From Candidatus Omnitrophota bacterium (lineage in GTDB: Bacteria > Omnitrophota > Gorgyraeia > Aquiviventales > Aquiviventaceae): a stretch of 64,000 bases of DNA. This document shows, piece by piece, positions 3,861 to 56,974 of this stretch; the first letter of the stretch is position 1; the number at the start of each line of letters is the position of its first letter. The notes under the pieces were generated by a model. The model saw nothing but the letters and a program-made list of their open reading frames with translations. It searched no databases and was not told the DNA's origin. The position numbers and the translations under genes are program-made. The stretch spans positions 1,457-65,456 of the forward strand of contig JACPAY010000007.1 in the NCBI GenBank assembly GCA_016180575.1. Reading direction: 5' to 3'.

Positions 3861-3917
3861 ATGAGACAGGGGACAAGGGACAGGGGACATGTCTCCCGTC
3901 TCCTGTCTCATGTCTCC
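3861..3917 (+). repeat. R1 palindromic element, intergenic copy (rplN-rplX spacer)
   Basis: ATGAGACAGGGGACAAGGGACAGGGGAC / ATGTCTCCCGTCTCCTGTCTCATGTCTCC; arms built from 7-nt units GGGGACA and TGTCTCC. Confidence 0.85.
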
Positions 3918-5572: not shown

Positions 5573-6136
5573 ATGTCCCGCATCGGACGCGCCCCCATCC
5601 CGATGCCGACCGGCGTCAAGGTGACGCAGGAGGGTCCGCGGCTGCTCGTCGAGGGGCCGAAGGGGAAGCTGTCGCTCGCCATCCCCGCGGCGATCTCGGT
5701 CAGCGTGGACGGCCAGACGGTCCGGGTGCAGCGCGCCGGCGACGAGGCGCGCCAGCGGGCGCTGCACGGGCTGACCCGCGCCCTGGTCGCCAACATGGTC
5801 CACGGCGTCTCCGCCGGGTTTTCGAAAGAGCTGGAGATCGCGGGCGTCGGCTACCGGGCGCAGCTGCAGGGCAAACAGCTCTCGCTCCAGGTCGGGTTCT
5901 CGCATCCGGTCGTGGTCCCCATCCCCGAGGGGCTGACCGTGGAGGTGCCCAAGCCCACCTCGGTGGTGGTCAAGGGGTCCGACAAGCACCTCGTCGGGCA
6001 GTTCGCGGCCAACATCCGCCGCATCGCCCCGCCGGAGCCGTATAAGGGCAAGGGGATCAAGTACGCGGGAGAGATCATCCGCCGGAAAGCGGGGAAGGCC
6101 GCGACCGGCGCGGGCGCCAAGGCGCAAGCGGGATGA
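5573..6136 (+). CDS. rplF: 50S ribosomal protein L6
   Basis: Track ORF 5570..6136; ATG at 5573 gives [12 protein letters not shown]… typical L6. Confidence 0.95.
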
Positions 6137-6207
6137 TCCTTCGACTCGCTTCGCTCGCTCAGGATCATGGTGAGCAAGGCTCCGGCAGGAGCCGCGTCGA
6201 ACCATGA
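6132..6207 (+). repeat. R2 gene-junction element (rplF stop to rplR start)
   Basis: GATGATCCTTCGACTCGCTTCGCTCGCTCAGGATCATGGTGAGCAAG-GGCTCCGGCAGGAGCC-GCGTCGAACCATGA. Confidence 0.9.
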
Positions 6208-12306: not shown

Positions 12307-13296
12307 ATGGGAACACTGTGGCGTGATTTTGCGATTCCCAAGCGCTTGACGTGCGATGAGGAGTCGCTCACCGACACCTACGGGAAGTTCGTCGCGGAGC
12401 CGTTTGAGCGCGGCTACGGCATGACGATCGGCAACGGCCTGCGGCGCGTGCTGCTCTCCTCGATCGAGGGCGCCGCGGTGACCTCCCTGCGGATCGACGG
12501 GGTCCTCCACGAGTTCAGCACCATCCCCGGGGTGCTGGAGGACATCACGCAGGTCGTCCTGAACGTGAAGCAGCTCGTCCTGCGCGCCCACTCCCGCCAG
12601 CCCAAGGTCCTGGTCATCGAGAAGGAGAAGAAGGGGCCGGTCACGGCCGGCGACATCAAGGGCGACGACACCATCGAGGTCGTCAACAGCGACCTGCACC
12701 TCTGCACGCTCACCAAGGCGGGGAAGTTCCGCATGGAGCTTGAGGCGAGCCGTGGGCGGGGCTACGTGCCGGCGGAGCGCCACAAGAAGGAGGGCCAGCC
12801 GATCGGCGTGATCCCGGTGGACGCGCTCTTCTCGCCGGTCACGCGCGTGAACTTCGCCGTCGAGGACACCCGCGTCGGGCAGGTGACAGACTACGACCGG
12901 CTGCTCCTGGAGATCTGGACGAACGGGGCGATGGGCCCGAAGGACGCGCTCCTGTACGCCTCCAACATCTTCCAGCGGCACCTCGACCTCTTCGTGAACT
13001 ACGGGACGCTGCCCGAGGAGCCGGAGGACGAGGAACCGCCCGCCGTCAGCGAGGAGCTCCAGGAGAAGCTCAAGACGCCGATCTCGGAGCTGGAGCTGTC
13101 GGTCCGGTCGGCCAACTGCCTGCGGGAAGCCAAGATCCACACGATCGGCGAGCTGGTGGAGAAGACGCCGCAGGAGCTGCTCAAGTACCGCAACTTCGGC
13201 AAGAAGTCGCTGGCGGAGATCGATGAGCTCCTGCATGGGATGGGGCTCCAGCTCGGAGGCCCGACGGGGCAGCCGGCCGAACCGAAAAGCGCCTGA
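12307..13296 (+). CDS. rpoA: DNA-directed RNA polymerase subunit alpha
   Basis: Track ORF; N-terminal domain ([23 protein letters not shown]) and C-terminal domain ([23 protein letters not shown]). Confidence 0.97.
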
Positions 13297-13826
13297 TGCG
13301 CCACGCCACACGGACCCAACGGCTCTCGCTGCCGAGCGAGCACCGCGCTGCGGTGCTGCATGGGCTCGTGCGGGAACTCGTCATCCACGGCCAGATCCGG
13401 ACGACGTACGCGCGGGCCAAGGAAGCGCAGCGGCTCGCCGACCGGCTGGTCACGCTGGGCAAGGCAGGGGATGTCCCCGCGAGGCGCCGGGCCTTCCGCG
13501 TCCTGCAGGACCGCGCGCTCGTGAAGCAGCTCTTCGGCGAGATTGCGCCGCGCTACGTGGACCTCTCCGGCGGCTACACCCGCGTGCTGCGGCTGTCGAT
13601 CCGCCGCGGGGACGGCGCCCAGCGGGCGCTGCTGGCCTTCAGCCGGCTTCCGGCCGGCGTCCCCGCAGCCCCGCCGGGAGCCAAGCCCGCGCAGCCGCCC
13701 CAGGCCCCCGCGGCGCCCACGCGCCAGCCGGCGCAGCCCGCAGGAGAGGCGAAGAAATCCAAAGGCCTGTTTGAGGGGCTGCGGCACATCTGGACCCGGA
13801 AGAAGAAGGGAGCCGCCGCATCGTGA
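13296..13826 (+). CDS. rplQ: 50S ribosomal protein L17 with ~60-aa A/P/Q-rich C-terminal tail
   Basis: Track ORF; [17 protein letters not shown]… L17 core, then PAGVPAAPPGAKPAQPPQAPAAPTRQPAQPAGEAKK…. Confidence 0.94.
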   Translation: MRHATRTQRLSLPSEHRAAVLHGLVRELVIHGQIRTTYARAKEAQRLADRLVTLGKAGDVPARRRAFRVLQDRALVKQLFGEIAPRYVDLSGGYTRVLRLSIRRGDGAQRALLAFSRLPAGVPAAPPGAKPAQPPQAPAAPTRQPAQPAGEAKKSKGLFEGLRHIWTRKKKGAAAS

Positions 13827-13886
13827 CCCATCAGCCTGCGCCGGTCTGCGATCCCGCCGACCGGCCTCCCCAGGTCCGCCACGACC

Positions 13887-15077
13887 ATGCCCCAGACCGC
13901 TGACCGCACCGAGGGCATCACGGGCTCACCGACCCTGGCGCTCGCCGCCAAGGCCAAGGCGCTCGCGAAGGCGGGCAAGCCGGTCCTCGATTTCACCGCC
14001 GGCGAACCGGATTTTCCCACCCCGCAGGCCGTCAAGGCCGCCGCCGTCAAGGCGATTGAGCAGAACTGTACGAAATACACGCCGGTGGCCGGCATCCCCG
14101 AGCTCCGCCAGGCGATCGCCAACGATCTCCACCGGCGATTAGGCGATCCTATCAAGTACGCTGCCGCCGAGGTGATGGTCTCCTGCGGCGCCAAGCACGC
14201 GCTCTACAACGCGCTGCAAGTCCTCTGCGATCCCGGCGATGAGGTCATCGTCCTGGCCCCGTACTGGGTCAGCTACGAACCGCTCGTGCGGCTGGCCGGT
14301 GCCGCGCCGGTGTTCGTCGAGACACGCGAGGCGGACGGGTTTCAGCCTGACCCGGCCGCGGTGAAGCGGACGATCACCTCGAAGACGAGGGCGATCATCC
14401 TCAACAGCCCGTCCAATCCGACCGGGGCGGTCATCGAGGAGTCCAGACTGAAAGCGCTGGCGGCCGCGCTGAAGGGGGCGCGCGCCGACGACAGTCTCTG
14501 CATCATCAGCGATGAGATCTACGACCAGATCGTCTTCCCGCCGGCCCGGGCTCGCTCGATCGTTCAGGTCGACCCAACCCTGATCGACCGGACCATTCTG
14601 GTCAATGGGGTCTCCAAGAGCTACAGCATGACCGGCTGGCGCATCGGCTACGCGGCCGGCCCCAAGAACGTGATTGACGCCATGATCAACCTGCAGAGCC
14701 ATTCGACGTCGAACCCGGCGTCCATCAGCCAGTACGCCGCGCTCGAGGCGATCACCGGCGACCAGCGGGAGGTCCAGCGCATGGCTGGGGAGTTTCAGCG
14801 CCGGCGGGATGCGCTGGTCGGCGGCCTCAATGAGATCCCGGGCCTCTCCTGTTTCAATCCGCAAGGCGCCTTCTATGCGTGGTGCAACATCAGCGGGCTG
14901 AAGCAGCCGGCTGACGCGATCGCCGCGCGATGGCTGGAAGACGCGTTGATCGCGACCGTGCCTGGCGAGGGGTTCGGCTCGCGCGAGCATGTCCGGTTCA
15001 GCTTTGCAACCTCGCTTCCCACCATCGAGGAAGCGCTCCAGCGGCTGGCGAAATGGGCGGGGGAGCGCCGCCGATGA
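13887..15077 (+). CDS. class I pyridoxal-phosphate aminotransferase (aspartate aminotransferase-like)
   Basis: Track ORF; SKSYSMTGWRIGY PLP-lysine motif and overall AspC/AspB-like sequence. Confidence 0.85.
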   Translation: MPQTADRTEGITGSPTLALAAKAKALAKAGKPVLDFTAGEPDFPTPQAVKAAAVKAIEQNCTKYTPVAGIPELRQAIANDLHRRLGDPIKYAAAEVMVSCGAKHALYNALQVLCDPGDEVIVLAPYWVSYEPLVRLAGAAPVFVETREADGFQPDPAAVKRTITSKTRAIILNSPSNPTGAVIEESRLKALAAALKGARADDSLCIISDEIYDQIVFPPARARSIVQVDPTLIDRTILVNGVSKSYSMTGWRIGYAAGPKNVIDAMINLQSHSTSNPASISQYAALEAITGDQREVQRMAGEFQRRRDALVGGLNEIPGLSCFNPQGAFYAWCNISGLKQPADAIAARWLEDALIATVPGEGFGSREHVRFSFATSLPTIEEALQRLAKWAGERRR

Positions 15078-16177
15078 GCCGCCGCGTGACGTTCATTCCG
15101 GGGGACGGGATCGGGCCGGAGGTGGCCTGGGCGGCCCGGCGCTGCCTCGAGGCAACCGGGGTGGCGTTCCAGTGGGACGAGCGGATCGCCGGCGAGGCGG
15201 CCATCGCGCGGTTTCAGACGCCGCTGCCGGAGGAGACGCTCCAGTCCATCCGCGATAACCGCGTGGCGATCAAGGGCCCCATCACGACCCCCATCGGCAA
15301 GGGATTCCGGTCCGTGAACGTCGCGCTGCGCAAGCAGCTGAACCTGTTCGCCTGCGTGCGGCCCTGCCGGACGTACGCGGGCGTGCGCGCGCCGGTCCCC
15401 CAGGTCGATCTCATCATCGTCCGCGAGAACACCGAAGACCTCTACGCGGGCATCGAGTTCGCCGCGGGCGAGCCCCGCACCCGCCAGCTGATCGCCCAGC
15501 TGCGGGACTGGTCCCAGCAGGCCATCCAGGAGGACGCGGCGATCAGCATCAAGCCCATCTCCGCGGCCGCGACGGAGCGCATCGTGCGGTTCGCCTGCGA
15601 GTACGCGCTCGCGCGCGGCCGGAAAAAGGTGACGGCGGTCCACAAAGCGAATATCATGAAATGCACGGACGGCCTCTTCATGGAGACCGCCCGCCGCGTG
15701 GCGGGGGCCTACGCCGGGCGCCTCGCCTTCGAGGACCGGCTGGTGGACGCCACATGCATGCAGCTCCTCCTCCGGCCCGGGGACTTCGACGTGCTCGTGC
15801 TGCCGAACCTCTACGGCGACATCCTCTCGGACCTGTGCGCCGGCCTCATCGGGGGGCTCGGCATCGCGCCGGGGGCCAACATCGGGGAGGAGGCGGCGGT
15901 GTTCGAGGCGGTCCACGGCAGCGCCCCGAAGTACGCCGGGCAGAACAAGGTGAACCCGACCGCGATGATCCTCTCCGGCGTCATGCTGCTGCGCCACATC
16001 GGGGAGCCCGAGGCGGCGGACCGGCTGGACGGGGCGGTCGCGGCGGTGCTGCGGGAGGGCCGCGACGTGACGTACGACCTGAAGCCGGACCGCAACGACC
16101 CGACCGCGGTCGGCACGAAGGAGATGGCCGCCGCGATCATCGAGCGGATGAAAACGGTCAAGGTGAGAGTCCCATGA
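15074..16177 (+). CDS. icd: isocitrate/isopropylmalate dehydrogenase family, NAD-IDH-like
   Basis: In-frame ATG 15074 overlapping the previous stop; VTFIPGDGIGPEV…, VALRKQLNLFACVRPC…, IVRENTEDLYAG blocks. Confidence 0.85.
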   Translation: MSRRVTFIPGDGIGPEVAWAARRCLEATGVAFQWDERIAGEAAIARFQTPLPEETLQSIRDNRVAIKGPITTPIGKGFRSVNVALRKQLNLFACVRPCRTYAGVRAPVPQVDLIIVRENTEDLYAGIEFAAGEPRTRQLIAQLRDWSQQAIQEDAAISIKPISAAATERIVRFACEYALARGRKKVTAVHKANIMKCTDGLFMETARRVAGAYAGRLAFEDRLVDATCMQLLLRPGDFDVLVLPNLYGDILSDLCAGLIGGLGIAPGANIGEEAAVFEAVHGSAPKYAGQNKVNPTAMILSGVMLLRHIGEPEAADRLDGAVAAVLREGRDVTYDLKPDRNDPTAVGTKEMAAAIIERMKTVKVRVP

Positions 16178-16187
16178 TAGAGCGTTT

Positions 16188-16286
16188 GGCCGCGGGTCCT
16201 GCCGCGCCGCCACCCCGCCGGCTGTCCTCGGCCTCGTCGGCCTGCGGGCAGGCGGCGGGGGCCCCGGCTCCGCGTCACCCGCGGCC
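16188..16286 (+). repeat. R3 99-nt GC-rich element (icd-lipA junction)
   Basis: Termini GGCCGCGGGT…ACCCGCGGCC; near-identical to the copies at 25220 and 56515 (reverse complement). Confidence 0.9.
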
Positions 16287-17111
16287 GTCTGCGAGAGCGC
16301 GCGCTGTCCCAACTTGCACGAGTGCTGGTCCAAGCGGCAGCTCACGTTCATGATCCTGGGCGAGCGCTGCACCCGCAGCTGCCGCTTCTGCGCGGTGGCG
16401 CACGGCCGGCCCGAGCCGGTCGAGGCGGATGAGCCCTGGCGCGTGGCGGAGGCGGTGCGGCGGCTCGGCCTCGTGCACGTCGTCATCACGTCGGTGGCGC
16501 GGGACGACCTCCGGGATGAGGGCGCCGGCCACTTCATCGAGGTCATCCGGACGGTTCGCCGCGAGAACCCAGGCGTGACGGTGGAGATTCTTATCCCGGA
16601 CTTCCACGGCCGGGAGGAGCTGGTGCAGGCGGTCGTCGGGGACGGGCGGCCCGACGTCTTCGCCCACAACGTGGAAACGGTCGAGCGGCTCTCCGGCCTC
16701 CTGCGGCCGCAGGCGGCCTACCGACGGTCGCTGCGCGTGCTCGGCCTCGCCGCCTCGCAGGGCGGGGAGTGCCTGATCAAGTCCGGCCTGATGCTGGGCC
16801 TGGGCGAAACCGCTGAGGAGATGGAACGGACCTTCGAAGACCTGCGCGCGGCCGGCGCCACCCACCTGACCATCGGGCAGTACCTCCGGCCGGACGCCGA
16901 CCACCTGCCGGTGCAGGAGTACGTCAGCCCGGAGCGGTTCGCGGAGTACGAGGCGCTCGCCTACCGCGCGGGGTTTGCGTGGGTGCGGTCCGGCCCATTC
17001 GTCCGCAGCTCCTACCACGCCGCCGAAGGCGTACACATGAGGAGTCCGGTTCCCGCTTTCCTATCGGAGAACTCTGGGAAACCGGGAACCGGACCCGGGA
17101 CTATCGCATGA
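16287..17111 (+). CDS. lipA: lipoyl synthase; initiation codon unresolved, C-terminus runs into repeat R4
   Basis: Track ORF starts at TTG 16314, but the in-frame conserved CESARCPNLHEC (CX4CX5C) begins at 16290. Radical-SAM CTRSCRFC motif present. Frame is open back to 16167 with no ATG/GTG/TTG. Confidence 0.8.
   Translation, partial: VCESARCPNLHECWSKRQLTFMILGERCTRSCRFCAVAHGRPEPVEADEPWRVAEAVRRLGLVHVVITSVARDDLRDEGAGHFIEVIRTVRRENPGVTVEILIPDFHGREELVQAVVGDGRPDVFAHNVETVERLSGLLRPQAAYRRSLRVLGLAASQGGECLIKSGLMLGLGETAEEMERTFEDLRAAGATHLTIGQYLRPDADHLPVQEYVSPERFAEYEALAYRAGFAWVRSGPFVRSSYHAAEGVHMRSPVPAFLSENSGKPGTGPGTIA
17037..17106 (+). repeat. R4 70-nt hairpin element (lipA 3' end / aminotransferase start)
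   Basis: ATGAGGAGTCCGGTTCCCGCTTTCCTATCGGAGAACTCTGGGAAACCGGGAACCGGACCCGGGACTATCG; 12-bp perfect stem GTCCGGTTCCCG/CGGGAACCGGAC. Confidence 0.9.
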
Positions 17112-18385
17112 CACGCCGCATGCCGCTCTCCATCCGCCGCATCCAGCGGCAGCTGCGCGAGCGGACCCGGAGGGAACTGGCGCGGAGCAACCGCCGGCTG
17201 TTCCACGAGGCGAACCGGCTCAAGCGGCTGCCTCTCTACCTCTTCACCATCCTGGATGAGCTCAAGGCCCAAGCGGCGGCGCGCGGGACCGATGTGATCG
17301 ACTTGGGGATGGGCAACCCGGACCTGCCGCCGCCGGCGCACGTCGTCGCCGAGCTGGTCAAGCAGGCGAGGAAGCCGGCGAACCACCGCTACTCCCGGAA
17401 GGGCGGGGATGTCGAGCAGAAGCTGCTGGAGACCATCGCGGCCTGGTACCACCGCAAGTTCCGCGTCTCGCTGGACCCGGGCGCCGAGGTGCTGCCGCTC
17501 ATCGGGTCGAAGGAGGGCATCTCGCACCTCTCGCTGGCATTCCTCAACCACGACGATATCGCGCTCGTGCCGAACCCGACCTACCCGGTGCACTTCAACG
17601 GGGTGGTCATGGCGGGCGGCATCCTGTACAACCTGCCGATCCACGCCGAGACGCACTGGCTGCCGGACCTGCGCGCCATCCCCAAGAGCGTCCTGCGCCA
17701 GTCCAAGCTGCTCTTCCTGAGCTACCCCCATAACCCGACGACGGCGGTGGCGGACCTGCGCTTCTTCAGGGAGGCGGTGGCGTGGGCCCGGGCGCACCGG
17801 ATCATGATCATCCATGACTTCGCGTACTCCGACATCACCTTCGATGGGCTCCGGGCGCCGAGCATCCTCGAGGTCCCGGGGGCGAAAGAGGTGTGCGTGG
17901 AGTTCCACACGCTCTCGAAGTCCTACAGCCTGCCGGGGCTGCGCCTCGGCTTCGGGGTGGGGAACCGGGACGTCCTGGCCTCCCTCGCGAAGACGAAGAG
18001 CTACATCGACTTCGGCATCTTCCGGGCCGTGCAGTGGGCCGCCATCGCCGCCCTGGCCGGCCCCCAGCAGTACGTCCACCGCGCGGTCGCCACGTATGCG
18101 CGGCGGCGCGACCTGGTCGTGGACGGGCTCGCGGGGATCGGCTGGCACGTCCCGAAGCCGAAAGGCACCTTCTACATCTGGACGAAGATCCCGCTCAAGT
18201 TCAACGCCCTGACCTCGCTTGAGTTCGCCACGCTCCTCATGCAGGAAGCCGGCGTGGTCGTCTCCCCCGGCAGCGGGTTCGGGGAGTACGGGGAAGGGTT
18301 TGTCCGCTTCGCGCTCGTCGAGCCCGAGCCCAGATTGCGGGAGGCGATCAAGCGCATCGCGAGGGTCCTGCAGATGGAAGATTGA
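17108..18385 (+). CDS. class I/II aminotransferase (DapL/alanine aminotransferase-like)
   Basis: In-frame ATG 17108 in track ORF 16979..18385; DLGMGNPD…, SYPHNPT…, LSKSYSLPGLRLGF motifs. Confidence 0.8.
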   Translation: MTRRMPLSIRRIQRQLRERTRRELARSNRRLFHEANRLKRLPLYLFTILDELKAQAAARGTDVIDLGMGNPDLPPPAHVVAELVKQARKPANHRYSRKGGDVEQKLLETIAAWYHRKFRVSLDPGAEVLPLIGSKEGISHLSLAFLNHDDIALVPNPTYPVHFNGVVMAGGILYNLPIHAETHWLPDLRAIPKSVLRQSKLLFLSYPHNPTTAVADLRFFREAVAWARAHRIMIIHDFAYSDITFDGLRAPSILEVPGAKEVCVEFHTLSKSYSLPGLRLGFGVGNRDVLASLAKTKSYIDFGIFRAVQWAAIAALAGPQQYVHRAVATYARRRDLVVDGLAGIGWHVPKPKGTFYIWTKIPLKFNALTSLEFATLLMQEAGVVVSPGSGFGEYGEGFVRFALVEPEPRLREAIKRIARVLQMED

Positions 18386-18412
18386 GCGCGGCCTGCGAGA
18401 GGCTGCTGAGCC

Positions 18413-19591
18413 ATGAACGGACGACGGATCCTCTTGATGCACATCACCACCAGCTCCGGCCACCATCGCGCCAGCTGCGCCATCGAGCGGACCGTCAGGG
18501 CGCTCGACCCCTCCGCGACGATCGTCAACCTCGACGCCTTCCAGTTCACCAGCCGCTTCGTCCGCTGGGCGATCACCCGCACCTACACCTCGCTGATCCA
18601 CCACCAACCGGACGTCTGGGAGTACCTCTACGACAACCCCTCGGTCCACCGCCGGCTGCAGTATTTCCGGGCGCTGCTCCACCGCTACCACGCCGCCAAG
18701 CTCCAGCAGGTCATGGAGACGGTGCGGCCCGACGCCATCGCCTGCACCCAGGCCTACCCTTGCGGGGTGGTCGCGGATTTCAAAAAGCAGCACCGCCTGC
18801 GCGTGCCGCTCATCGGCGTGCTGACGGACTACGCGCCGCACCTCTATTGGTTCCATGACACCGTCGACGTGTACGTCGTCCCCTCCGAGCAGGTGAAGCG
18901 GCGCTTCGCCACCCGGGGGGTCGACCCGGCCCGGGTGCGGGCGCTCGGCATCCCCATCGACCCCCGCTTCCATGACCCCGTCGACCGGCAGGCGGCCGCC
19001 AGGCGATTCGGCCTGAACCCCGAGCAGCCGGTGCTCCTCATCATGGGCGGCGGCAGCGGGTTCGGCCAGATGCGGGAGATCGTCCTCAGCCTCGATACGC
19101 TGCCGCATCCCTGCCAGCTCGTCGTCCTCGCCGGGACCAACCGTCCGCTCCTCGCCTGGCTGCAGGGCCAGCGGTTCCGGCACCGAGTGCTGGCCGTCGG
19201 CTACACCGAGGAGGTGCCCGAGCTCATGTCCGTCGCCACGCTGCTCGTCAGCAAGCCGGGCGGCCTGACGACCTCCGAAGCGCTGGCCAAGCACCTGCCG
19301 CTCGTCATCGTCAATCCCATCCCGGGCCAGGAAGCATACAATGCCCGCTTCCTGCTGTCCCAGGGGGCGGCGGTCCAGGCCGCGTCGGCCGCGGCGGTCC
19401 GGCAGCCCGTGCGCGATCTCCTCGACGACCCGGAACAGCTCGAGACGCTGAAGCGGCGGAACGCGGAGCTCGCCCACCCCCGCGCGGCGCCCGCCATCGC
19501 GCGCCTGCTGTGCGAGCTCGCCGACCAGTACCGGGACCGCCCGCGGCCCGAAGCGGACCGCCCGCGGCCCACCGCGGAGGTGCTCTCCTGA
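18413..19591 (+). CDS. GT28-family glycosyltransferase (monogalactosyl/glucosyl-diacylglycerol synthase-like)
   Basis: Track ORF; N-terminal ILLMHITTSSGHHRAS… and C-terminal LVSKPGGLTTSEALAKHLPLVIVNPIPGQE resemble MGDG-synthase/UgtP family. Confidence 0.7.
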   Translation: MNGRRILLMHITTSSGHHRASCAIERTVRALDPSATIVNLDAFQFTSRFVRWAITRTYTSLIHHQPDVWEYLYDNPSVHRRLQYFRALLHRYHAAKLQQVMETVRPDAIACTQAYPCGVVADFKKQHRLRVPLIGVLTDYAPHLYWFHDTVDVYVVPSEQVKRRFATRGVDPARVRALGIPIDPRFHDPVDRQAAARRFGLNPEQPVLLIMGGGSGFGQMREIVLSLDTLPHPCQLVVLAGTNRPLLAWLQGQRFRHRVLAVGYTEEVPELMSVATLLVSKPGGLTTSEALAKHLPLVIVNPIPGQEAYNARFLLSQGAAVQAASAAAVRQPVRDLLDDPEQLETLKRRNAELAHPRAAPAIARLLCELADQYRDRPRPEADRPRPTAEVLS

Positions 19592-20427
19592 GCGCGAAGT
19601 ACGCCGCCTATCGAACGGCGCAATGGCTCAGCCAGCGCCTGCCGTCGCCGGCGGCATTCGGCTGCGCCGAGCGCGTGGCCGACCTGTGGATCCGGGGCGC
19701 CCGCCGCGAGCGCGCCGCGATCCGCGCCAACCTCGCCCTGGCGCTGGAGGCTGCCGCGCCGGAGGCCACACTCGTCCGGGAGGTGTTCCGCAACTTCGGC
19801 CGCTACCTGGTGGAGTTCTTCACCATCCATCAGACCCCGAAGCCCGCGGTGTCGGTCGAGGGCTACGACCATCTCCTGAACGCCAGGCGCCGGGGAAGCG
19901 GCGCCGTGCTCCTGACCGGCCACCTCGGCAACTGGGAGGTCGGGGCGGTCCTCCTGCGCCGCATGGGCCTGCCCGTCGCGGTGATCGCCCTGCCGCATGA
20001 CGATGCCGGGACGAACCGGCTCTTCAACCGCCAACGGCACCGCTGCGGCCTCGAGGTGATCCCGGTGGGCGAGGACGCGGCGCAGCGCAGCCTGCAGCGG
20101 CTCCGGGAAGGGTGCCTCCTCGGCGTCCTCGGCGACCGGGAGTTCGGCGGGCACGGCGTGCCGGTCCGCATCTTCCGCCGCGAGCTCCTCCTGCCGAGCG
20201 GCCCGGCCATCCTGAGCCTCCGGGCCCGCGTGCCGGTCATCCCCACGTTCCTCATCCGGGAAGGCCCCTGGCGCTTCCGCCTGTGCCTGGAGCCGGCCAT
20301 CCAGCCCGACGGGCAGGAGGGGGCCGCGTTGGTCCCTCGATTGACCCAGCGCTACGCGCAGGTCCTCGAGCGATACGTGCGGCGGACGCCGACGCAGTGG
20401 CTGCTCTTCGAGCCGGCCATGGGATGA
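19510..20427 (+). CDS. lysophospholipid/lipid A acyltransferase family protein (start uncertain)
   Basis: Track ORF; LLTGHLGNWEV (HX4D/E acyltransferase motif). GTG 19510 overlaps the upstream gene by 82 nt; CTG 19588 is an alternative start. Confidence 0.7.
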   Translation: MRARRPVPGPPAARSGPPAAHRGGALLSAKYAAYRTAQWLSQRLPSPAAFGCAERVADLWIRGARRERAAIRANLALALEAAAPEATLVREVFRNFGRYLVEFFTIHQTPKPAVSVEGYDHLLNARRRGSGAVLLTGHLGNWEVGAVLLRRMGLPVAVIALPHDDAGTNRLFNRQRHRCGLEVIPVGEDAAQRSLQRLREGCLLGVLGDREFGGHGVPVRIFRRELLLPSGPAILSLRARVPVIPTFLIREGPWRFRLCLEPAIQPDGQEGAALVPRLTQRYAQVLERYVRRTPTQWLLFEPAMG

Positions 20428-20948
20428 GGGCGCTCGTCATCAGCCACCTGCGCAACCAGGGGAAGGGCTGCGCCCTGCGGACCGGCTTCATGCATGCGCT
20501 GCGGGAGCACTTCGAGGGCATCGTCACCCTGGACAGCGACGGGCAGCACGACCCGGCCGACATCCCGCAGCTCATCGCCGAAGGCGAGCGGCAGCACGCG
20601 AGCCTGGTGCTCGGCAACCGGATGGCGAACGGCGCGCGGATGCCCACGGCGAGGCGGTGGACCAACGCCGCCATGTCGCGCCTCGTCTCGACGCGCATCC
20701 GGCAGCCCATCCCGGATTCCCAGTGCGGCTTCCGGTTCATCCACAAGGAACTGTTGGACACCCTCCCCCTGCGGGCGAAGCGGTTCGAAGGCGAGACCGA
20801 GCTGGTCATCTGGGCGGCTGTGCGGCGCTGGAAGATCATCTCCGTGCCGGTGCGCAGCACCGACCAGCGCCATCCCAGCCACATCCGCCCCGTGCGGGAC
20901 GCGGTCCGGTTCCTGGGCGTGCTGATCCGGTCGCTGGCCTGGCGATGA
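20424..20948 (+). CDS. glycosyltransferase family 2, N-terminally truncated (possible remnant)
   Basis: ATG 20424 overlapping the previous stop. NQGKGCALRTGF and LDSDGQHDP motifs present, but the usual N-terminal ~80 aa are absent in every frame upstream. Confidence 0.55.
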   Translation: MRALVISHLRNQGKGCALRTGFMHALREHFEGIVTLDSDGQHDPADIPQLIAEGERQHASLVLGNRMANGARMPTARRWTNAAMSRLVSTRIRQPIPDSQCGFRFIHKELLDTLPLRAKRFEGETELVIWAAVRRWKIISVPVRSTDQRHPSHIRPVRDAVRFLGVLIRSLAWR

Positions 20949-22514: not shown

Positions 22515-25204
22515 TGTCCGTTCGCGTGCCCATCCCCCCTGCCGGCCAAACAACTCGGCTTCGCCGCCTCGATGAGAGGCCGTCCCCCCGGCACCGCGCC
22601 GGGGTCGTCGTGGCCGCCACAACCGCGCTCAGCATGCTGATGATGTCTCACAGTGCAAAGGCCGCCGTCCCGTCCCGCGCATCGGTGCATCACCTGGTGC
22701 TGGACAACGGCCTCCAGGCGGTCTGGGAAGAGGACCGCCGCCAGCCGCTGGTGGCCGTCGAGGTCCGCATCCAAGGCGGCCTGCGGGGCGAGGGCCGGTG
22801 GCTCGGCACCGGCATCACCCACTTCATCGAGCACATGCTCTTCAAAGGGACCCCCTCGCGCCCGCCCGGCACGATCGAGCAAGAGGTGCGCCGCTACGGC
22901 GGGACGATCAACGCCTTCACCTCGTTCGACGCCACCGGGGTCTCGCTGTTCGTGGAATCCCCCCACCTGCGCGACGCCCTCGTCATGCTGGCGGATATCC
23001 TGCAGCATGCCGTGTTCGACCAGGTCGAGTTCGAGAAGGAGCGGGCCGTCATCGTCTCCGAGATTCAGATGAACCGGGACGACCCCAACCGGCGCCTCCA
23101 CGAGTTGTTTTGGTCCCGCCATATGCTGGTACACCCCTACCGGCACCCCACCATCGGCTACCAGCCGCTCCTCGAGCGGCTGACGGTCCAGGACTTGACC
23201 GCCTTCTATGCCTCGCAGTACCAACCGCAGCACATCACCATCGCCTGCGTCGGCGACCTCGATGGCGCCGCCTTTCCGGCGCTGGTGCGGGAGCTCTTCG
23301 GGCCCTGGGCCCGGGGGACGACGGATCCCCTGCAGGAACTCGTCCCGGCGGAGCCGCCGAGCGCCAGCACGAAGCGCATCGAGATCGAGCTCCCCGTCCA
23401 GACCGCCTATGCGATGCTCGGGTTCTCCTCGGTGCGCCTCTCCGACCCGGACCTCTACCCGCTCGACGTGCTGGCCACCATCGTCGGGCAGGGGCGCAGC
23501 TCGCGGCTCTATGAAACCGTCGTCCGGACGCGGCGCCTGGCGCATGCCATCACCGCCTGGAACTACACCCCCTATGACCCGGGCGTCTTCGCCGTCCAGT
23601 GGCAGACCGACCCCGAGCAGCTCGACGCTTCGGCGGAGGCCATCCTCGACGTGCTGGACGATATCAAGCAGCGCGGGGCGAGCGAGGCCGAGCTCGAGAA
23701 GGCGAAGAAGGCGGTCACCGCCGCGTACCTCTTCGGCCTCCAGACGGTGGAGGCGAAGGCGGGCGACCTGGCTTCCTCCTTTGCCGAAACCGGGGACCCC
23801 CTGTTTTCGAGGCGCTACGTCGAGGGGATCGACCAGGTGACGGGTCCGCAGGTCAAGGCCGCCGCCCGGCGCTACTGCGACCGGTCCGCGATGACCCTGG
23901 CCGTCATCCGCCCCGCCGCGGCAGCCGCCGCACCGGCGGCTCCCGAGGCGCAGGCGGCGCCGGTCCCGGTCACGAAGACCGTCCTCGGCAACGGCGCCAC
24001 CGCGCTCATCGGCGTCGACCCCGGCCTGCCGATCGCGGCGATCGTCGTGGCGTTCCGCGGCGGGGTCCGCGTCGAGACGGACGACACCCAAGGCCTGTCC
24101 AACCTGGTCGCCCAGCTGCTCATCAAGGGGACGAAGCAGAAGAGCGCCCTCGAGATCGCCCAGGCGGTCGAATCACTGGGCGGGTCCATCGAACCGTTCA
24201 GCGGGCGGGACGGCTTCGGGGTCGTGCTGCAGCTCCTGGCCGCTGATGCGGCAACCGGCGTTGCGCTCCTGCATGAGCTGGTCACGCAGTCCACATTCCC
24301 TGAGGAGGAGCTGGCCATCCAGCGGAGGCTCATCACCAAGCAGCTGGCGGCCGAGGAGGACGAGCTGTTCGACGTCGGCGGGCGGCTGCTCCGGCAGACG
24401 CTCTTCGAGCGCCACCCCTACCGCTTCCATCCGCTCGGGGATGAGGACACCCTCAAGGTCCTGACGCGCGAGCAGTGCCTGGCGTTCGCCAGGCGCTGGC
24501 TCGTGCCGTCGAACGCCGTCGTCGCGGTCTTCGGCGACGTCGATGCGGCCGCCGTGGGCCGCCAGCTTGAGCGGTCATTCGGCGCCATCAAGCCGGGCGC
24601 GTCCGAGTGGCCGGACCGGCTGGCCGCCGAGCCGCTGGAGGACGTGCGCGAGGCCGCCCGCGCCATGGAGAAGGAGCAGGCGCTCATCATGCTCGGGTTC
24701 CGCGGCAGCACCTACGCGGCCGACGATCGCTATGCGCTCGATCTCCTGACGGCGGTGCTCTCCGGGATGTCCGGCCGGCTCTTCCAGGCGGTCCGCGAGC
24801 AGCACGGCCTCTCCTACACGCTGGGCGCCGTGCACGTCCCGGGCTGGGACCCCGGCTACCTGCTGGTGTACGCCGCGACGCGCCCCGAGGAAACGGCGCG
24901 GGTGCAGGCGGCGCTGCGGGACCAGCTCGCACTCGCCGCCGCCAAGGGGGTCGACGCGGAGGAACTCGAGCAGGCCAAGCGCTATCTCATCGGCCAGCAC
25001 CGGATGGAGCTCCAGCACCTGATCGGCCTGGCCAAGCGCTCCGCGCTGGATGAGCTCTACGGCATCGGCTACGATGCGTGGCGGAGCTATGAGGACAAGA
25101 TCAATGCCCTCACCGTGCCCGTGGTGAATGAGGCGGCGGCGCGCTACCTCACGATGCCACAGCATGCGGAAGTGGTGATTGCGCCCAATGGAAAAGCACC
25201 ATAG
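22514..25204 (+). CDS. fused double M16 (pitrilysin/insulinase) zinc peptidase
   Basis: Track ORF, 896 aa; HFIEH inverted zinc motif near the N-terminus; two M16/M16_C-like halves; hydrophobic signal-like segment. Start (GTG 22514) uncertain. Confidence 0.8.
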   Translation: MSVRVPIPPAGQTTRLRRLDERPSPRHRAGVVVAATTALSMLMMSHSAKAAVPSRASVHHLVLDNGLQAVWEEDRRQPLVAVEVRIQGGLRGEGRWLGTGITHFIEHMLFKGTPSRPPGTIEQEVRRYGGTINAFTSFDATGVSLFVESPHLRDALVMLADILQHAVFDQVEFEKERAVIVSEIQMNRDDPNRRLHELFWSRHMLVHPYRHPTIGYQPLLERLTVQDLTAFYASQYQPQHITIACVGDLDGAAFPALVRELFGPWARGTTDPLQELVPAEPPSASTKRIEIELPVQTAYAMLGFSSVRLSDPDLYPLDVLATIVGQGRSSRLYETVVRTRRLAHAITAWNYTPYDPGVFAVQWQTDPEQLDASAEAILDVLDDIKQRGASEAELEKAKKAVTAAYLFGLQTVEAKAGDLASSFAETGDPLFSRRYVEGIDQVTGPQVKAAARRYCDRSAMTLAVIRPAAAAAAPAAPEAQAAPVPVTKTVLGNGATALIGVDPGLPIAAIVVAFRGGVRVETDDTQGLSNLVAQLLIKGTKQKSALEIAQAVESLGGSIEPFSGRDGFGVVLQLLAADAATGVALLHELVTQSTFPEEELAIQRRLITKQLAAEEDELFDVGGRLLRQTLFERHPYRFHPLGDEDTLKVLTREQCLAFARRWLVPSNAVVAVFGDVDAAAVGRQLERSFGAIKPGASEWPDRLAAEPLEDVREAARAMEKEQALIMLGFRGSTYAADDRYALDLLTAVLSGMSGRLFQAVREQHGLSYTLGAVHVPGWDPGYLLVYAATRPEETARVQAALRDQLALAAAKGVDAEELEQAKRYLIGQHRMELQHLIGLAKRSALDELYGIGYDAWRSYEDKINALTVPVVNEAAARYLTMPQHAEVVIAPNGKAP

Positions 25205-25219
25205 TCCCTGGACCTGCGT

Positions 25220-25348
25220 GGCCGCGGGTCCTGCCGCGCCGCCACCCCGCCGGCTGTCCTCGGCCTGGTCGGCCTGCGGGCAGGCGGCGGGGGCCCCGGC
25301 TCCCCCGGCCCGCTCCGGCGTGCCGGGGCGGGCGCGTCACCCGCGGCC
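25220..25348 (+). repeat. R3 element, 129-nt variant with nested 30-nt insert
   Basis: Same termini; extra CCCCGGCCCGCTCCGGCGTGCCGGGGCGGG segment (itself a CCCCGGC/GCCGGGG hairpin). Confidence 0.9.
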
Positions 25349-25415
25349 CAGCGAGGTATTCGACACAGCACCTGGGATCGCTTCTGCGCCTGAGCCGAGG
25401 GTCCACCGACCGGCT

Positions 25416-26204
25416 GTGGCCGGCTATTACTACCCGGCGGAGCCGGACGCGCTGCGGGATGCGGTCGATGCCTGGAGCCGGCGGGAGGCGCCGCCCCTGC
25501 CGGCGCGCGCCGTGATCGTGCCGCATAGCAGTTTCGCCCGCTCCGGCGCCATCGCGGGGGCGATGTGCGCGCGAGTGGCGATCCCGCGCCGGTGCCTCCT
25601 CATCGGCCCCTCGCACACCGGCAGCCGGATGCGCTGGAGCCTGATGGCCGCCGGCGCCTATCAGACGCCGCTCGGCGAGGTGCCGGTCGATGAGGCCAGC
25701 GCGGAGGCGCTGCGCCTCCGATGCCCGTTCCTCGAGGTCGATGGCTCGGCGCAGCGCGGGGAGCATGCGCTCGAGGTCGTGCTCCCGTTCTTCCAGCGCC
25801 TCGGCCCGGCGGACCTGACGGCTCTCCCCATCGTGATGGGGGCGGAAGACGGGGGAGAGATCAGCCGGCTCGCCGACGCGATCGCCCAGACAGTCCGGAT
25901 GTCCGAGGAGCCCTGGCTGCTCATCGCCAGCGCCGACCTCTCGCAGCATGAGCCGCGCGACCGTGCCGTTCGGCTCGACCGCGCGGTCATCGAACGGATC
26001 GCCGCCCTGGACGGGGCGGGCCTGCTGCGCCTGGCGCGGGAGCGTCCCGCCCGGATGTGCGGCGCGGGCGCGGCCGCCTGCGTGCTCCAGGCCGCTGCGG
26101 CGCTGGGGGCGTCCCGCGGGACGCTCGTGCGATACGGCACCAGCGCCGACGCCGAGGGCGACCCGCACGCCGTCACCGGCTACGCCGGCTTCCTCATCGA
26201 GTGA
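25416..26204 (+). CDS. MEMO1/AmmeMemoRadiSam-system protein B family (start uncertain)
   Basis: Track ORF 25179..26204. Conserved domain begins AGYYYPAEPDALRDAV. GTG 25416 is the nearest start; ATG 25179 would read through repeat R3. Confidence 0.7.
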   Translation: MAGYYYPAEPDALRDAVDAWSRREAPPLPARAVIVPHSSFARSGAIAGAMCARVAIPRRCLLIGPSHTGSRMRWSLMAAGAYQTPLGEVPVDEASAEALRLRCPFLEVDGSAQRGEHALEVVLPFFQRLGPADLTALPIVMGAEDGGEISRLADAIAQTVRMSEEPWLLIASADLSQHEPRDRAVRLDRAVIERIAALDGAGLLRLARERPARMCGAGAAACVLQAAAALGASRGTLVRYGTSADAEGDPHAVTGYAGFLIE

Positions 26205-29305: not shown

Positions 29306-30661
29306 ATGTTTTCGAAGATCCTGATCGCCAACCGGGGAGAGATCGCCGTCCGCGTCATCCGGGCCTGCAAGGAGATGGGCATCCGGACGGTCGCGGTCTA
29401 CTCCGAGGCGGACCGGAGCAGCCTCCACGTCCGCCTGGCCGACGAGGCGATCTGCATCGGGGGCCCGAAGCCTGAGCAGAGCTACCTCAATATCCCGGCG
29501 ATCATCAGCGCCGCCGAGATCACGGATGTCGAGGGGATCCACCCGGGCTACGGCTTCCTCTCCCAGAACGCCCACTTCGCGGAGATCTGCGAATCCTGCA
29601 ACATCACCTTCATCGGGCCGCCCCCGCAGGCGATGCAGCTCATGGGCGACAAGCTCGCGGCGAAGGACCTCATGCGGAAGGCCGGCATCCCGATCATCCC
29701 CGGGAGCATGGCCGCGGTCCGCAACAAGGAGGACGCCCTGAAGACCGCCCGGCGCATCCAGTACCCGGTCATCGTCAAGGCGGCGGCGGGCGGGGGCGGG
29801 CGGGGGATGCGGGTGTGCCACAATGACGTCCGGCTCATCAGCGCCCTCATGACCTGCCAGGCGGAGGCCGAGGCCAGCTTCGGCAACCGGGACGTCTTCG
29901 TCGAGAAGTACCTCCCGGAGCCCCGGCACATCGAGTTCCAGATCCTCGCGGACAGGTTCGGCCACACGATCCACCTGGGGGAGCGGGATTGCACGATCCA
30001 GCGGCGCCACCAGAAGCTCGTGGAGGAATCGCCCTCCCCGGCGGTCGACGCGAAGCTCCGGCGGAAGATGGGCGAGCTGTCGGTCCGGGCGGCCAAGGCG
30101 GCCGGGTACGTCTCCGCGGGGACGGTGGAGTTCCTCCTCAGCCGGGACGGGACGTTCTACTTCATCGAGATGAACACCCGCATCCAGGTCGAGCACCCGG
30201 TCACGGAGATGGTGACGGGGCTCGACCTCGTCAAGGAGCAGATCCGGATCGCGGCGGGCGAATCGCTCGGCTATAAACAGGACGACATCGCCCTGGAGGG
30301 GTGGGCGATCGAATGCCGGGTCAACGCGGAAGACCCCTCGAACGGGTTCTCGCCCTGTCCGGGCCGCATCACGGAGTACCAGCCCCCGGGCGGGCGCGGC
30401 ATCCGCGTGGACACGCATGTCTTCGCCGGCTACGACGTGCCCCCGTTCTACGACTCCCTGCTCGCCAAGGTCATCAGCGTCGGGACCTCGCGCGAGGACG
30501 CCATCCGGATCATGCAGCGCGCGCTGGACGAGTTTCTCATCGAGCCGATCCGGACCACGATCCCCCTCCACCGGCAGATCTTCAGCGACCCGACATTCTG
30601 GCGCGGGCAGCTGGCCACCAACTACCTCGATCGGCAACTGCAACTTGGGGAGGCTGAATGA
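29306..30661 (+). CDS. accC: acetyl-CoA carboxylase biotin carboxylase
   Basis: Track ORF; [21 protein letters not shown]… and ATP-grasp blocks. Confidence 0.97.
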
Positions 30662-30735
30662 TCCTTCGACTCGCTTCGCTCGCTCAGGATCATGGTGAGC
30701 AAGTCCCGCCATTGGCGGGACGCGTCGAACCATGA
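30657..30735 (+). repeat. R2 gene-junction element (accC stop to pfk start)
   Basis: AATGATCCTTCGACTCGCTTCGCTCGCTCAGGATCATGGTGAGCAA-GTCCCGCCATTGGCGGGAC-GCGTCGAACCATGA. Confidence 0.9.
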
Positions 30736-31772: not shown

Positions 31773-32341
31773 GCGCCGAGGACACGATCCGGGCGAGCCT
31801 CCGGGAGACCGCCCGGCTCCTGGCGGAGTTCCCGGATGCCCAGACCGCCCGGGTCGCCAAGGCCGCCTCACTCATGGCGGAAGCGGTCCGCTCCGGCCGG
31901 AAGGTCATCTGGTTCGGCAACGGCGGCTCGGCGACGCAGGGCCAGCACATGGCGGCGGAGTTCGTGGGGCGGTTCCGGAAGGAGCGCCGCGCCCTGCCAT
32001 CGATCTCGCTGACCGAGAACATGGCCAGCGTCACCGCGATCGGCAACGACTACGCCTTCGAGCGGATCTTCGCGCGGCAGCTCGAAGGCCTGGGGCAGGC
32101 CGGGGACGCGGCGGTGGGGCTCTCAACCTCAGGGAACTCGCCCAACGTCCTCGAGGGGCTCCGCCAGGCCAAGGCGCTGGGCCTCTCCGCCATCGGCCTC
32201 ACCGGCGGCGACGGTGGGCGCATGGAAGCGCTGTGCGACGTCTGCATCTGCGTGCCCTCGACGGTCACGGCGCACGTCCAGGAAGCCCACCTCGCCATCG
32301 GGCACATCCTCTGCGGGCTGGTGGAAGATGCCATCAAATGA
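31769..32341 (+). CDS. gmhA: phosphoheptose isomerase (SIS domain)
   Basis: Track ORF; [17 protein letters not shown]…, [11 protein letters not shown]…, [12 protein letters not shown] blocks. Confidence 0.9.
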
Positions 32342-32407
32342 GGAGTCCGGTTCCCGCTTTCCCATCGGAGAACTCTGGGAAACCGGGAACCGGACCCGGG
32401 ACTATCG
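32338..32407 (+). repeat. R4 70-nt hairpin element (gmhA stop / hldC start)
   Basis: One substitution relative to the 17037 copy by eye; the gmhA TGA is nt 2-4 of the element. Confidence 0.9.
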
Positions 32408-34134: not shown

Positions 34135-34205
34135 GCGGGTATAGCACAGTGGTAGTGCGCTAGCTTCCCAAGCTAGTAACGCGGGTTCGATTCCCGCTAC
34201 CCGCT
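34135..34205 (+). tRNA. tRNA-Gly (anticodon CCC)
   Basis: Hand-folded cloverleaf: acceptor GCGGGTA/TACCCGC, D-arm GCAC/GTGC, anticodon arm CTAGC-TTCCCAA-GCTAG, T-arm GCGGG-TTCGATT-CCCGC; CCA not encoded. Confidence 0.9.
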
Positions 34206-42664: not shown

Positions 42665-42746
42665 GGCGGGTCCTGCCGCGCCGCCACCCCGTCGGCTGTC
42701 CTCGGCCTTCGCCTGCGGGCAGGCGACGGGGTCCCCGGCTCTGCGT
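42665..42746 (+). repeat. R3 element, degenerate copy lacking intact termini
   Basis: GGCGGGTCCTGCCGCGCCGCCACCCCGTCGGCTGTCCTCGGCCTTCGCCTGCGGGCAGGCGACGGGGTCCCCGGCTCTGCGT. Confidence 0.8.
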
Positions 42747-43810: not shown

Positions 43811-43887
43811 CGGGGCGTAGCGTAGCTTGGTAGCGCGCCTGAATGGGGTTCAGGAGGTCGGGAGTTCAAATCTCCCCGCCCCGACCA
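43811..43887 (+). tRNA. tRNA-Pro (anticodon GGG), CCA encoded
   Basis: Hand-folded cloverleaf: acceptor CGGGGCG/CGCCCCG, anticodon arm CCTGA-ATGGGGT-TCAGG, T-arm GGGAG-TTCAAAT-CTCCC, discriminator A plus CCA. Confidence 0.9.
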
Positions 43888-45212: not shown

Positions 45213-45249
45213 GGAGCAGGAAACAGGGAACCGGACCCGGGACTATTGG
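45209..45249 (+). repeat. R4 element, truncated copy (hom stop / thrC start)
   Basis: ATGAGGAGCAGGAAACAGGGAACCGGACCCGGGACTATTGG; left stem arm missing. Confidence 0.75.
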
Positions 45250-56112: not shown

Positions 56113-56974
56113 GGCTAGGCTCTCCCGGCACATCGGCGGACGGCCGGTTCACGCGTTCCAACAGGTCGGCTCGACGATGGAGGTGGCGCACCAGCTGGCG
56201 GCTGAGGGCGCGGCGGAGGGCACGCTGGTCGTCGCCGCGCGCCAGGAGCAGGGGAGAGGCCGTCAGGGGCGGACGTGGGCGTCCCCGGAGGGCGGGGCCT
56301 ACTGCTCGCTCATCCTCCGGCCCGCGCGGCCTCCGTCCGAAACCCCGCAGCTCTCGCTGGTCGCCGGACTGGCCGCGGCTGAAGCCATCCGGGACATGGC
56401 CTGCCTCTACCCCGCGATCCGCTGGCCCAACGACCTCCTGCTGAGGGAGAAGAAGGTGGCCGGCATCCTCACTGAACAAAAAGTGCCAGGCTGCTCCGTC
56501 GAACATCCCCGTATGGCCGCGGGTGACGCGGAGCCGGGGCCCCCGCCGCCTGCCCGCAGGCCGAGGAGGCCGAGGACAGCCGACGGGGTGGCGGCGCGGC
56601 AGGACCCGCGGCCCGGCGTGGTCATCATCGGCATCGGGATCAACGTGGCCACCAATCCGGCGCAGCTGCCGGAGGGCTCGACCTCGCTGGCGGCCGAGGG
56701 GGCCCCGCACGTGAGCCGCGAGGAGCTGCTCGCCGGCTGGTGCCGCCGCTTCAGCGCCTGGTACGAGGTGTGGACGCGCCAGGGCTTCGGCCCCATCCGC
56801 GAGGCGCTGCGCCCCTGGATCGGCCTCTTCGGCCACCCGGTGCAGCTCACCGCGGGCTCCGAGCAGCTCCAAGGCACCGCCCAGGATCTCGACGAGTCCG
56901 GCCGCCTCCTTGTGCGCCTCGACTCCGGTGTTCAGCGCGCGTTCGAGATGGGGGAGGTCGCGCTGCTCAGATGA
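56075..56974 (+). CDS. birA: biotin--[acetyl-CoA-carboxylase] ligase (no HTH domain) with in-frame R3 insertion
   Basis: Track ORF; QEQGRGRQGRTWASP motif, IRWPNDLLL…KKVAGIL, IGIGINV. Start ATG 56075 overlaps uvrB by 38 nt. Confidence 0.88.
   Translation: MSRASVQRDPELEARLSRHIGGRPVHAFQQVGSTMEVAHQLAAEGAAEGTLVVAARQEQGRGRQGRTWASPEGGAYCSLILRPARPPSETPQLSLVAGLAAAEAIRDMACLYPAIRWPNDLLLREKKVAGILTEQKVPGCSVEHPRMAAGDAEPGPPPPARRPRRPRTADGVAARQDPRPGVVIIGIGINVATNPAQLPEGSTSLAAEGAPHVSREELLAGWCRRFSAWYEVWTRQGFGPIREALRPWIGLFGHPVQLTAGSEQLQGTAQDLDESGRLLVRLDSGVQRAFEMGEVALLR
56515..56613 (-). repeat. R3 99-nt element, inverted orientation, in frame inside birA
   Basis: Reverse complement matches the 16188 copy; exactly 99 nt between GGCCGCGGGT and ACCCGCGGCC. 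Confidence 0.9.

Follow-up and report, generated by a model that had tools for sequence, protein, structure and literature searches.

We analyzed the junction of the icd and lipA genes in a 64-kb stretch of DNA, hereafter the window, from contig JACPAY010000007.1 of a groundwater Candidatus Omnitrophota bacterium (assembly GCA_016180575.1). The icd gene (15074..16177, plus strand) encodes a 367-aa member of the isocitrate/isopropylmalate dehydrogenase family (Pfam Iso_dh, E 2e-104), which is an exact match to GenBank MBI2104604.1, aligns over residues 1-367 with the Icd proteins of the relatives L001 and L004, and ends with the TGA codon at 16175-16177. A 10-nt spacer, TAGAGCGTTT (16178..16187, plus strand), separates this stop from a copy of a palindromic repeat, R3 (16188..16286, plus strand), which is followed by the conserved body of lipA (16287..17033, plus strand), where homology to relatives begins at 16287 with Val33 in the family numbering. 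The product of lipA is lipoyl synthase, a radical SAM enzyme (EC 2.8.1.8) with 8000 homologues at E <1e-20. Its C-terminal tail is read through a second palindromic repeat, the 73-nt D4 (17034..17106, plus strand), and its stop codon at 17109-17111 overlaps the ATG (17108) of a class I/II aminotransferase gene (17108..18385, plus strand), which comparison with relatives shows to be intact and syntenic. The R3 copy appears to stand where the native ATG and the first 32 codons of lipA belong.

The lipA frame is closed upstream by the TGA at 16164-16166 and is open on the plus strand from 16167, as seen in the sequence, the open reading frame (ORF) table, the frame translation, and a codon-by-codon listing. 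The 41 codons at 16167-16289 include no ATG, GTG, or TTG, nor any ATH, ACG, AAG, or AGG codons, and the sole near-cognate codon in the frame upstream of the cysteine motif is CTG 16242-16244. The CX4CX5C motif itself, CESARCPNLHEC (16290-16325), holds the ligands of the auxiliary cluster, and the first canonical start of the frame, TTG 16314-16316, lies past its first two cysteines. R3 begins 21 nt past the frame-closing stop, and a single GTC (Val) codon separates it from the first cysteine, Cys1. The ATG at 16174, overlapping the icd stop as ATGA, is in a different frame; it opens a 59-codon ORF without a Pfam match that crosses R3 and ends at 16353, where its TGA shares bases with ATG 16350; this ATG encodes the Met of TFMILG and lies past the last of the three auxiliary-cluster cysteines. 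Initiation at either TTG 16314 or ATG 16350 would cost LipA cluster ligands. In GenBank, the gene is represented by MBI2104605.1 ("MAG: lipoyl synthase, Candidatus Omnitrophica bacterium", where MAG stands for metagenome-assembled genome), a 289-aa protein with a 100% match, encoded on a contig of 126,043 nt, that begins MRAGGGGPGSASPAAVCES; its start, chosen by the Prokaryotic Genome Annotation Pipeline (PGAP), is CTG 16242, translated as Met.

The original prediction, made from the DNA alone, had listed the frame open from 16167 with no start before TTG 16314, CTG 16242 as the only near-cognate codon, the position of R3 one codon ahead of Cys1 and 21 nt after the stop, and the out-of-frame ATG at the icd stop; re-reading of the sequence and the ORF table confirmed all of these. 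By base composition, the chance of finding no canonical start in 41 codons is 34%, and the oddity is a conserved gene having no start ahead of its catalytic motif, not the start-free stretch itself. What the original prediction missed is the main point: judging by comparison with homologues, lipA lacks not just a start codon but its native ATG together with 32 conserved N-terminal codons, and R3 stands in their place. It was also unaware that the CTG already serves as the start in GenBank.

Close homologues of the window protein (70-88% identical) begin MQRYPRWLKQtFSPDGVARxVxxLVxDLxLeT and continue with VCESARCPN. In an alignment of 120 sequences, exactly 32 residues precede Val33 in 108 of the 119 homologues, the others being mostly shorter and possibly fragments, and 15 of these positions are 90-100% conserved (M1, Y4, P5, W7, K9, F12, S13, P14, G16, A18, V21, L24, L28, L30, and T32). 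In the window, protein homology starts abruptly at 16287, the relatives aligning from residue 33, and a tblastn search of the window with the 32-residue N-terminus gave nothing better than E 0.1. Since homology starts at Val33 and the preceding 32 codons are found nowhere in the window, we infer that R3 replaced the 5' end of lipA, the native ATG included. A split lipA gene was considered and found unsupported, the N-terminal 32 residues being encoded nowhere in the window. The spacer TAGAGCGTTT was also considered as a remnant of an ancestral ATGCAGCGGT, but only six of nine positions match, which is too weak to interpret.

The lost segment is conserved far beyond the close relatives. The pattern P.W[LMIVF][KR] occurs 28-32 residues ahead of Cys1 in 75 of 79 phylogenetically diverse LipA loci fetched from genomes, and none of these 79 loci lacks a canonical start. 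The 32 residues align with residues 43-73 of Mycobacterium tuberculosis LipA and residues ~73-104 of human LIAS, whose N-terminal domain contains the three cysteines and whose residues 66-110 form a belt at the interface with the H-protein (PMC12246082). The window gene has neither the N-terminal P-x-W-L-K, expected about 29 residues ahead of Cys1, nor a canonical start; it is lipA by descent but an incomplete gene. As the N-terminal 32 codons are gone, any start within R3 would yield a LipA without this near-universal segment.

R3, an imperfect palindrome of 99 nt, is bounded by perfect terminal inverted repeats of 10 bp, GGCCGCGGGT and ACCCGCGGCC, and folds as a single long hairpin (-79.3 kcal/mol, z -3.1). 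The window contains four copies that are 92-99% identical. The second was found by a search allowing three mismatches, for which no matches are expected by chance, and the original prediction was right to treat R3 as a genuine repeat. Besides the copy that stands in place of lipA codons 1-32, there is a copy with a 29-nt internal insert (25304-25332) at 25220..25348 (plus strand), located 15 nt beyond the stop codon of an M16 peptidase gene, with a Memo-like gene downstream; an older, 92% identical intergenic copy with eroded ends at 42666..42746 (plus strand), 18 nt upstream of the gpsA ATG 42764; and a 98% identical copy (two mismatches) at 56515..56613 (minus strand), which lies in frame, as 33 codons, within birA (56075-56974). 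The three plus-strand copies all sit 10-18 nt past the stop of the upstream gene (icd, the M16 peptidase gene, and a hypothetical gene before gpsA), although this is a small sample. None of the four copies is flanked by a direct repeat that would represent a target-site duplication, no Rfam family matches R3, and a promoter and terminator scan found no promoter-like or terminator-like consensus at the repeat. An invariant 24-mer of R3 had no exact matches in Joint Genome Institute (JGI) metagenomes and viral contigs.

As expected for an in-frame insertion, the birA copy leaves the host ORF open and has no counterpart in orthologues. The BirA protein is 299 aa long here versus 251-278 aa in relatives and is annotated as intact in GenBank. 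The 33 residues encoded by R3 lie between GILTE and VVIGIGINV, in a loop that is variable among relatives, and the alignment with solved BirA structures in PDB breaks between residues 136 and 182. When all reading frames of R3 were searched against 5.8 billion proteins, only the window BirA was returned, and therefore in-frame residence is exceptional for R3. The repeat is open in five of six frames because it is GC-rich, so that an open frame is no evidence of coding; the lipA and birA copies are read in different frames and orientations and so do not encode a conserved peptide.

In the region 25188-25416, the Memo-like (AmmeMemoRadiSam B) gene shows no canonical start between the R3 copy at 25220-25348 and the conserved RPAVAG motif (25404). 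The GenBank start of this gene, GTG 25416, is inside the motif, and the nearest upstream in-frame start, GTG 25320, falls in the 29-nt insert of R3. This gene may be the second one with a 5' end disturbed by R3.

Comparison of the icd-lipA junction with that of relatives, a check proposed in the original prediction, showed that relatives keep an intact lipA with an ATG 32 codons before Val33. Synteny is conserved in this region (L17, an aminotransferase gene, icd, lipA, an aminotransferase gene, the MGDG synthase gene, and others). On four contigs of relatives (L004 and L085-87), the junction reads TGAATG without any spacer, and lipA is intact. On three others (L001-3), an intact lipA is preceded by a 106-nt spacer that holds a different palindromic repeat, the third found in this study (GCGGAATGCGGAGTGCGGAATGG ... 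CATTCCGAATTCCGCATTCCG; positions 3040-3125 of L001, also present in L002 and L003). On two contigs of an assembly from the Hainich aquifer in Germany (L088/89), lipA is again intact and follows a 78-nt spacer made up of a D4 element; this element, which shares 97% identity with the copy at the lipA 3' tail in the window, also replaces the last icd codons and supplies the icd stop. Thus three unrelated palindromic families have hit the same junction in sibling genomes, and we consider this junction a hot spot. The loss of the lipA 5' end was seen in the window and in none of the sibling genomes compared.

We lean towards the explanation that the 5' end of lipA was really and recently replaced by R3, leaving a null or crippled allele, possibly a polymorphic one. 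The ancestral state would be that of the siblings, in which the icd stop leads directly into the ATG of lipA or into a spacer containing another palindrome. An insertion of R3, an element resembling the repetitive extragenic palindromic (REP) sequences and MITEs (transposable elements of the miniature inverted-repeat type), into the crowded junction of the icd stop and the lipA start would then have removed 96 nt of coding sequence, and this loss could have occurred by a single insertion-with-deletion, by a later deletion, or by recombination between R3 copies. Since there is no canonical start before CX4CX5C and the near-universal segment (P-x-W-L-K ... L-x-T) is absent, the allele is most likely null or severely crippled. 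Of the four options that the original prediction left side by side without a choice, gene inactivation is the favored one. The lesion may not be fixed in the population. A tblastn search of the window for LipB, LplA, GcvH, and a lipoyl domain found nothing, which is uninformative on the whole genome.

The rest of the gene is well preserved. The radical-SAM motif CX3CX2C (CTRSCRFC) is at 16368-16391 (Pfam Radical_SAM, E 2.5e-18), and RSSY, with the C-terminal serine ligand of the auxiliary cluster, is at 17004-17015. As the other 274 codons show no decay, the lesion should be recent, in agreement with the 98-99% identity between R3 copies. Several observations nevertheless weigh against a null allele or against a real lesion. 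Downstream of Val33, 124 alignment columns reach at least 95% conservation, and the window protein deviates at none of them, the median of other sequences being one deviation. In three-taxon Nei-Gojobori estimates (window, L001, and L004) of nonsynonymous (dN) and synonymous (dS) divergence, the window branch (dN 0.040, dS 0.162, ratio about 0.25) is similar to those of its siblings L001 (0.028, 0.151, and about 0.18, respectively) and L004 (0.034, 0.215, and about 0.16). An intact body fits a very recent lesion and continued selection on a functional gene equally well. Further, lipA is kept by every relative seen, which makes it somewhat surprising to find a null allele in the assembled consensus. 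Finally, look-ups of exact products (the GenBank LipA, the LipA started at TTG, Icd, the aminotransferase, and BirA) found no independent assembly of the icd-R3-lipA junction, and some structural states of the contig are not shared by the whole population, so that minority or erroneous states can be present in it.

These last points bear on the possibility that the junction is an assembly artefact, which we consider unlikely, although it is the most serious of the alternatives. It could have arisen if an intact lipA 5' end was lost by collapse of two direct R3 copies or if a minority haplotype was chosen when bubbles were merged. The source is indeed a MAG built from short reads, and the R3 copies, 98-99% identical and 99 nt long, are below the read size and above small k-mers. 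An assembler cannot make the icd-R3 and R3-Val33 junctions without reads, and the only artefact compatible with de Bruijn assemblers is the collapse of an arrangement icd-R3-[ATG + codons 1-32]-R3-Val33. In that arrangement, R3 would still abut Val33 as a 33-residue insertion just before Cys1, and lipA would still be abnormal. In addition, synteny is kept on either side of R3, by icd to the left and lipA to the right, the contig crosses the three other R3 copies without rearrangement, and no stretch of 21 nt or longer is common to the R3 end and the sequence upstream of Val33 in relatives, so that a jump in the assembly graph is not expected. Sliding identity across icd and lipA shows no shift that would point to chimerism between strains. 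The local sequence error invoked by the original prediction thus narrows to the collapsed-repeat scenario, with R3 still next to Val33.

Independent data approach the junction from both sides. Over 12858-15972 and 17078-20427, Logan contigs of this strain match the window with 100% identity, leaving the junction uncovered; they break within icd, which is 93-97% identical to that of relatives at the nucleotide level, and within D4. One of them, L090, ends at 15972 in icd, 216 nt before R3, where the window has no repeated 31-mer. This end is likely caused by k-mers common to co-occurring relatives, though a structural variant starting at 15972 may lie behind it. A strain-specific 33-mer of lipA had no matches in a metagenome scan, and a LipA search of genome contigs returned no closer relative.

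The same contig carries a second lesion that is relevant here. Comparison with Logan contigs showed that a family-2 glycosyltransferase (GT2) gene (20424..20948, plus strand) is missing codons 2-50, a stretch of 147 nt that contains the DDGS motif, with the breakpoint between 20427 and 20428. L091, a Logan contig of the same strain from another run, coincides with the window over 3653 nt without mismatches but holds the missing 147 nt (positions 3125-3271 of L091). The full-length 223-aa product is encoded on four Logan contigs, while the 174-aa form (MBI2104609.1) occurs only in the MAG. This case counts in favor of an artefact at lipA. On the other hand, the GT2 breakpoint coincides with the very end of a Logan contig from SRR12113431, which suggests that the deletion junction exists in reads and both alleles are present, that is, a polymorphism rather than a fabrication. 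Of the 12 syntenic genes, only lipA and the GT2 gene have absent 5' ends.

If the junction is real and R3 did replace the 5' end, the truncated lipA could still be expressed and useful, starting at CUG 16242 or by re-initiation after icd, with a repeat-encoded N-terminus and the three cluster cysteines kept. We regard this as doubtful. The lipA frame is open throughout R3, every catalytic motif is preserved, the 124 conserved columns are all unaltered, dN/dS on the window branch is well below one, PGAP picked the CTG as the start, and an in-frame R3 copy is tolerated in birA. Moreover, LipA is required in small amounts only. On the other side, the CTG is base-paired in the apical stem of the R3 hairpin, at -79 kcal/mol, 65 nt beyond the icd stop, and no Shine-Dalgarno sequence precedes it, the upstream region being only pyrimidine-rich, with no purine-rich tract. 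Even in optimized Escherichia coli reporters, CUG initiates at 1-2% of the AUG level (bioRxiv 10.1101/063800). The open frame counts for little given that R3 is GC-rich and open in five of six frames. The product would lack the segment kept in 75 of the 79 diverse LipAs and in all solved structures, a part of the interface with the substrate protein, and no natural short LipA was seen among the 119 close and 79 distant homologues. We conclude that the GenBank CTG start is an annotation rescue, not biological evidence, and a non-canonical start inside the repeat, another option of the original prediction, has lost ground.

Still less probable is a broader proposal, in which the R3-headed lipA is translated, from the CUG in a very stable hairpin or by re-initiation, with a working new N-terminus, and such elements act as exchangeable start and stop cassettes. 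In this Omnitrophota lineage, the termini of genes at tightly packed operon junctions might routinely be remodeled, and not only disrupted, by small palindromic elements: D4 gives stops to gmhA in the window and to icd in the German relative, and, from the stop of the peptidase gene up to the conserved motif of the Memo-like gene, the sole canonical in-frame start is the one in the R3 insert.

Recoding, either from ATG 16174 coupled to the icd stop with a -1 shift within R3 or by a +1 shift at the icd stop that would produce an Icd-LipA fusion, is very improbable: ATG 16174 alone has a Shine-Dalgarno-like context (AAGGTGAGAG upstream), R3 is stop-free in its frame, and the G5C4 run (16257-16266) offers sites for single-tRNA re-pairing, but there is no slippery heptamer X XXY YYZ anywhere in 16174-16290 as required for a programmed -1 frameshift, the hairpin would already be unwound when the ribosome reaches the G/C run and so could not act as a downstream stimulator, CCATGA is merely the Pro codon and stop of icd, also found in L001 where lipA starts 106 nt further on, and the product would still lack the native N-terminal segment. 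The +1 shift was rejected on codon context, since CCA-UGA re-pairs poorly and the icd frame has a TAG after its TGA. A sister R3 copy is equally 99 nt long, giving no hint of an indel in the lipA copy, and the frame change from ATG 16174 suggested originally is accordingly disfavored.

Replacement by a mobile repeat, the explanation that we prefer, has several known counterparts. The Rickettsia palindromic elements (RPEs) are of ~100-150 bp, occur in many copies, and are found in frame in housekeeping genes, where they are translated (Ogata et al. 2000, as cited in PMC10969869). R3 is likewise palindromic and multi-copy, and it is translated in frame in birA (99 nt, 33 codons, at a surface-loop position). 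Unlike RPEs, however, it is mostly intergenic (three of the four copies), does not reside frequently in ORFs, encodes no conserved peptide, and at lipA replaces coding sequence rather than adding to it; its host phylum is unrelated, and no sequence relationship is expected. The REP elements and bacterial interspersed mosaic elements (BIMEs) of proteobacteria are imperfect palindromes located just past stops in operons in one orientation, a placement that R3 may share: its three intergenic copies, all on the plus strand, lie 10-18 nt past a stop, though the sample is small and the fourth copy is intragenic. At the same time, whereas a REP unit measures 20-40 nt, R3 forms one hairpin of 99 nt that has terminal inverted repeats of 10 bp, and it also enters coding sequence. 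No REP-associated tyrosine transposase (RAYT, or TnpA-REP) was seen in the window, where no search aimed at RAYT was made.

The likeness to MITEs (Correia, ERIC, RUP, and BOX) is in size, terminal inverted repeats, near-identical copies, and insertion at gene boundaries; R3 is short, non-coding, and multi-copy, and, like MITEs, it can alter gene ends or create fusions and is polymorphic in its insertion between related genomes. The differences are the lack of a visible target-site duplication and of a known parent insertion sequence. We conclude that R3 behaves as a MITE or a REP-type palindromic element with one RPE-like in-frame copy, and that it is a new repeat family acting by a known process.

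The annotated lipA initiator also invites comparison with infC, where the unusual AUU start codon is conserved, accessible, and regulatory. The lipA CTG is similarly a near-cognate codon, but it is part of a mobile repeat, lies hidden in a hairpin, and is absent from every relative, all of which start at an ATG 32 codons before Val33.

Other repeats were observed in the window. D4 carries an internal TGA and was found, in addition to its lipA copy, at 32335-32407, where it supplies the gmhA stop (32339-32341), and at 45219-45246, as well as in L088 (1074-1142) and L001 (3999-4022). Its copies in groundwater genomes from California and Germany are 97% identical, the lipA dS of these genomes being about 0.3. 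D6 is a 51-nt repeat with a GATCCT...AGGATC palindrome, present in copies 96-100% identical at two gene junctions, in the ribosomal protein cluster (6128-6178) and between accC and pfk (30653-30703). The D2 family consists of runs of the heptamer GGGGACA/GGAGACA followed by their complement (51020-51090, 51728-51798, 53740-53810, and 3863-3889). Two tRNA genes (34135-34205 and 43811-43884) are the sole matches in the window at the Rfam gathering score.

For annotation, these observations mean that MBI2104605.1 should probably be flagged as 5'-truncated or as a possible pseudogene, and that lipoate synthesis is not to be counted in metabolic reconstructions of this MAG without a check of the reads. 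The GT2 lesion, exposed by comparison with independent Logan assemblies, shows that a MAG consensus can carry minority structural alleles. The locus itself is a clean and instructive example of a known process and opens no long-standing question; the more interesting by-products are the targeting of one junction by three element families and the donation of stop codons by D4. In Omnitrophota operons, small palindromic elements have repeatedly landed in tight stop/start junctions, and the downstream gene can lose its start.

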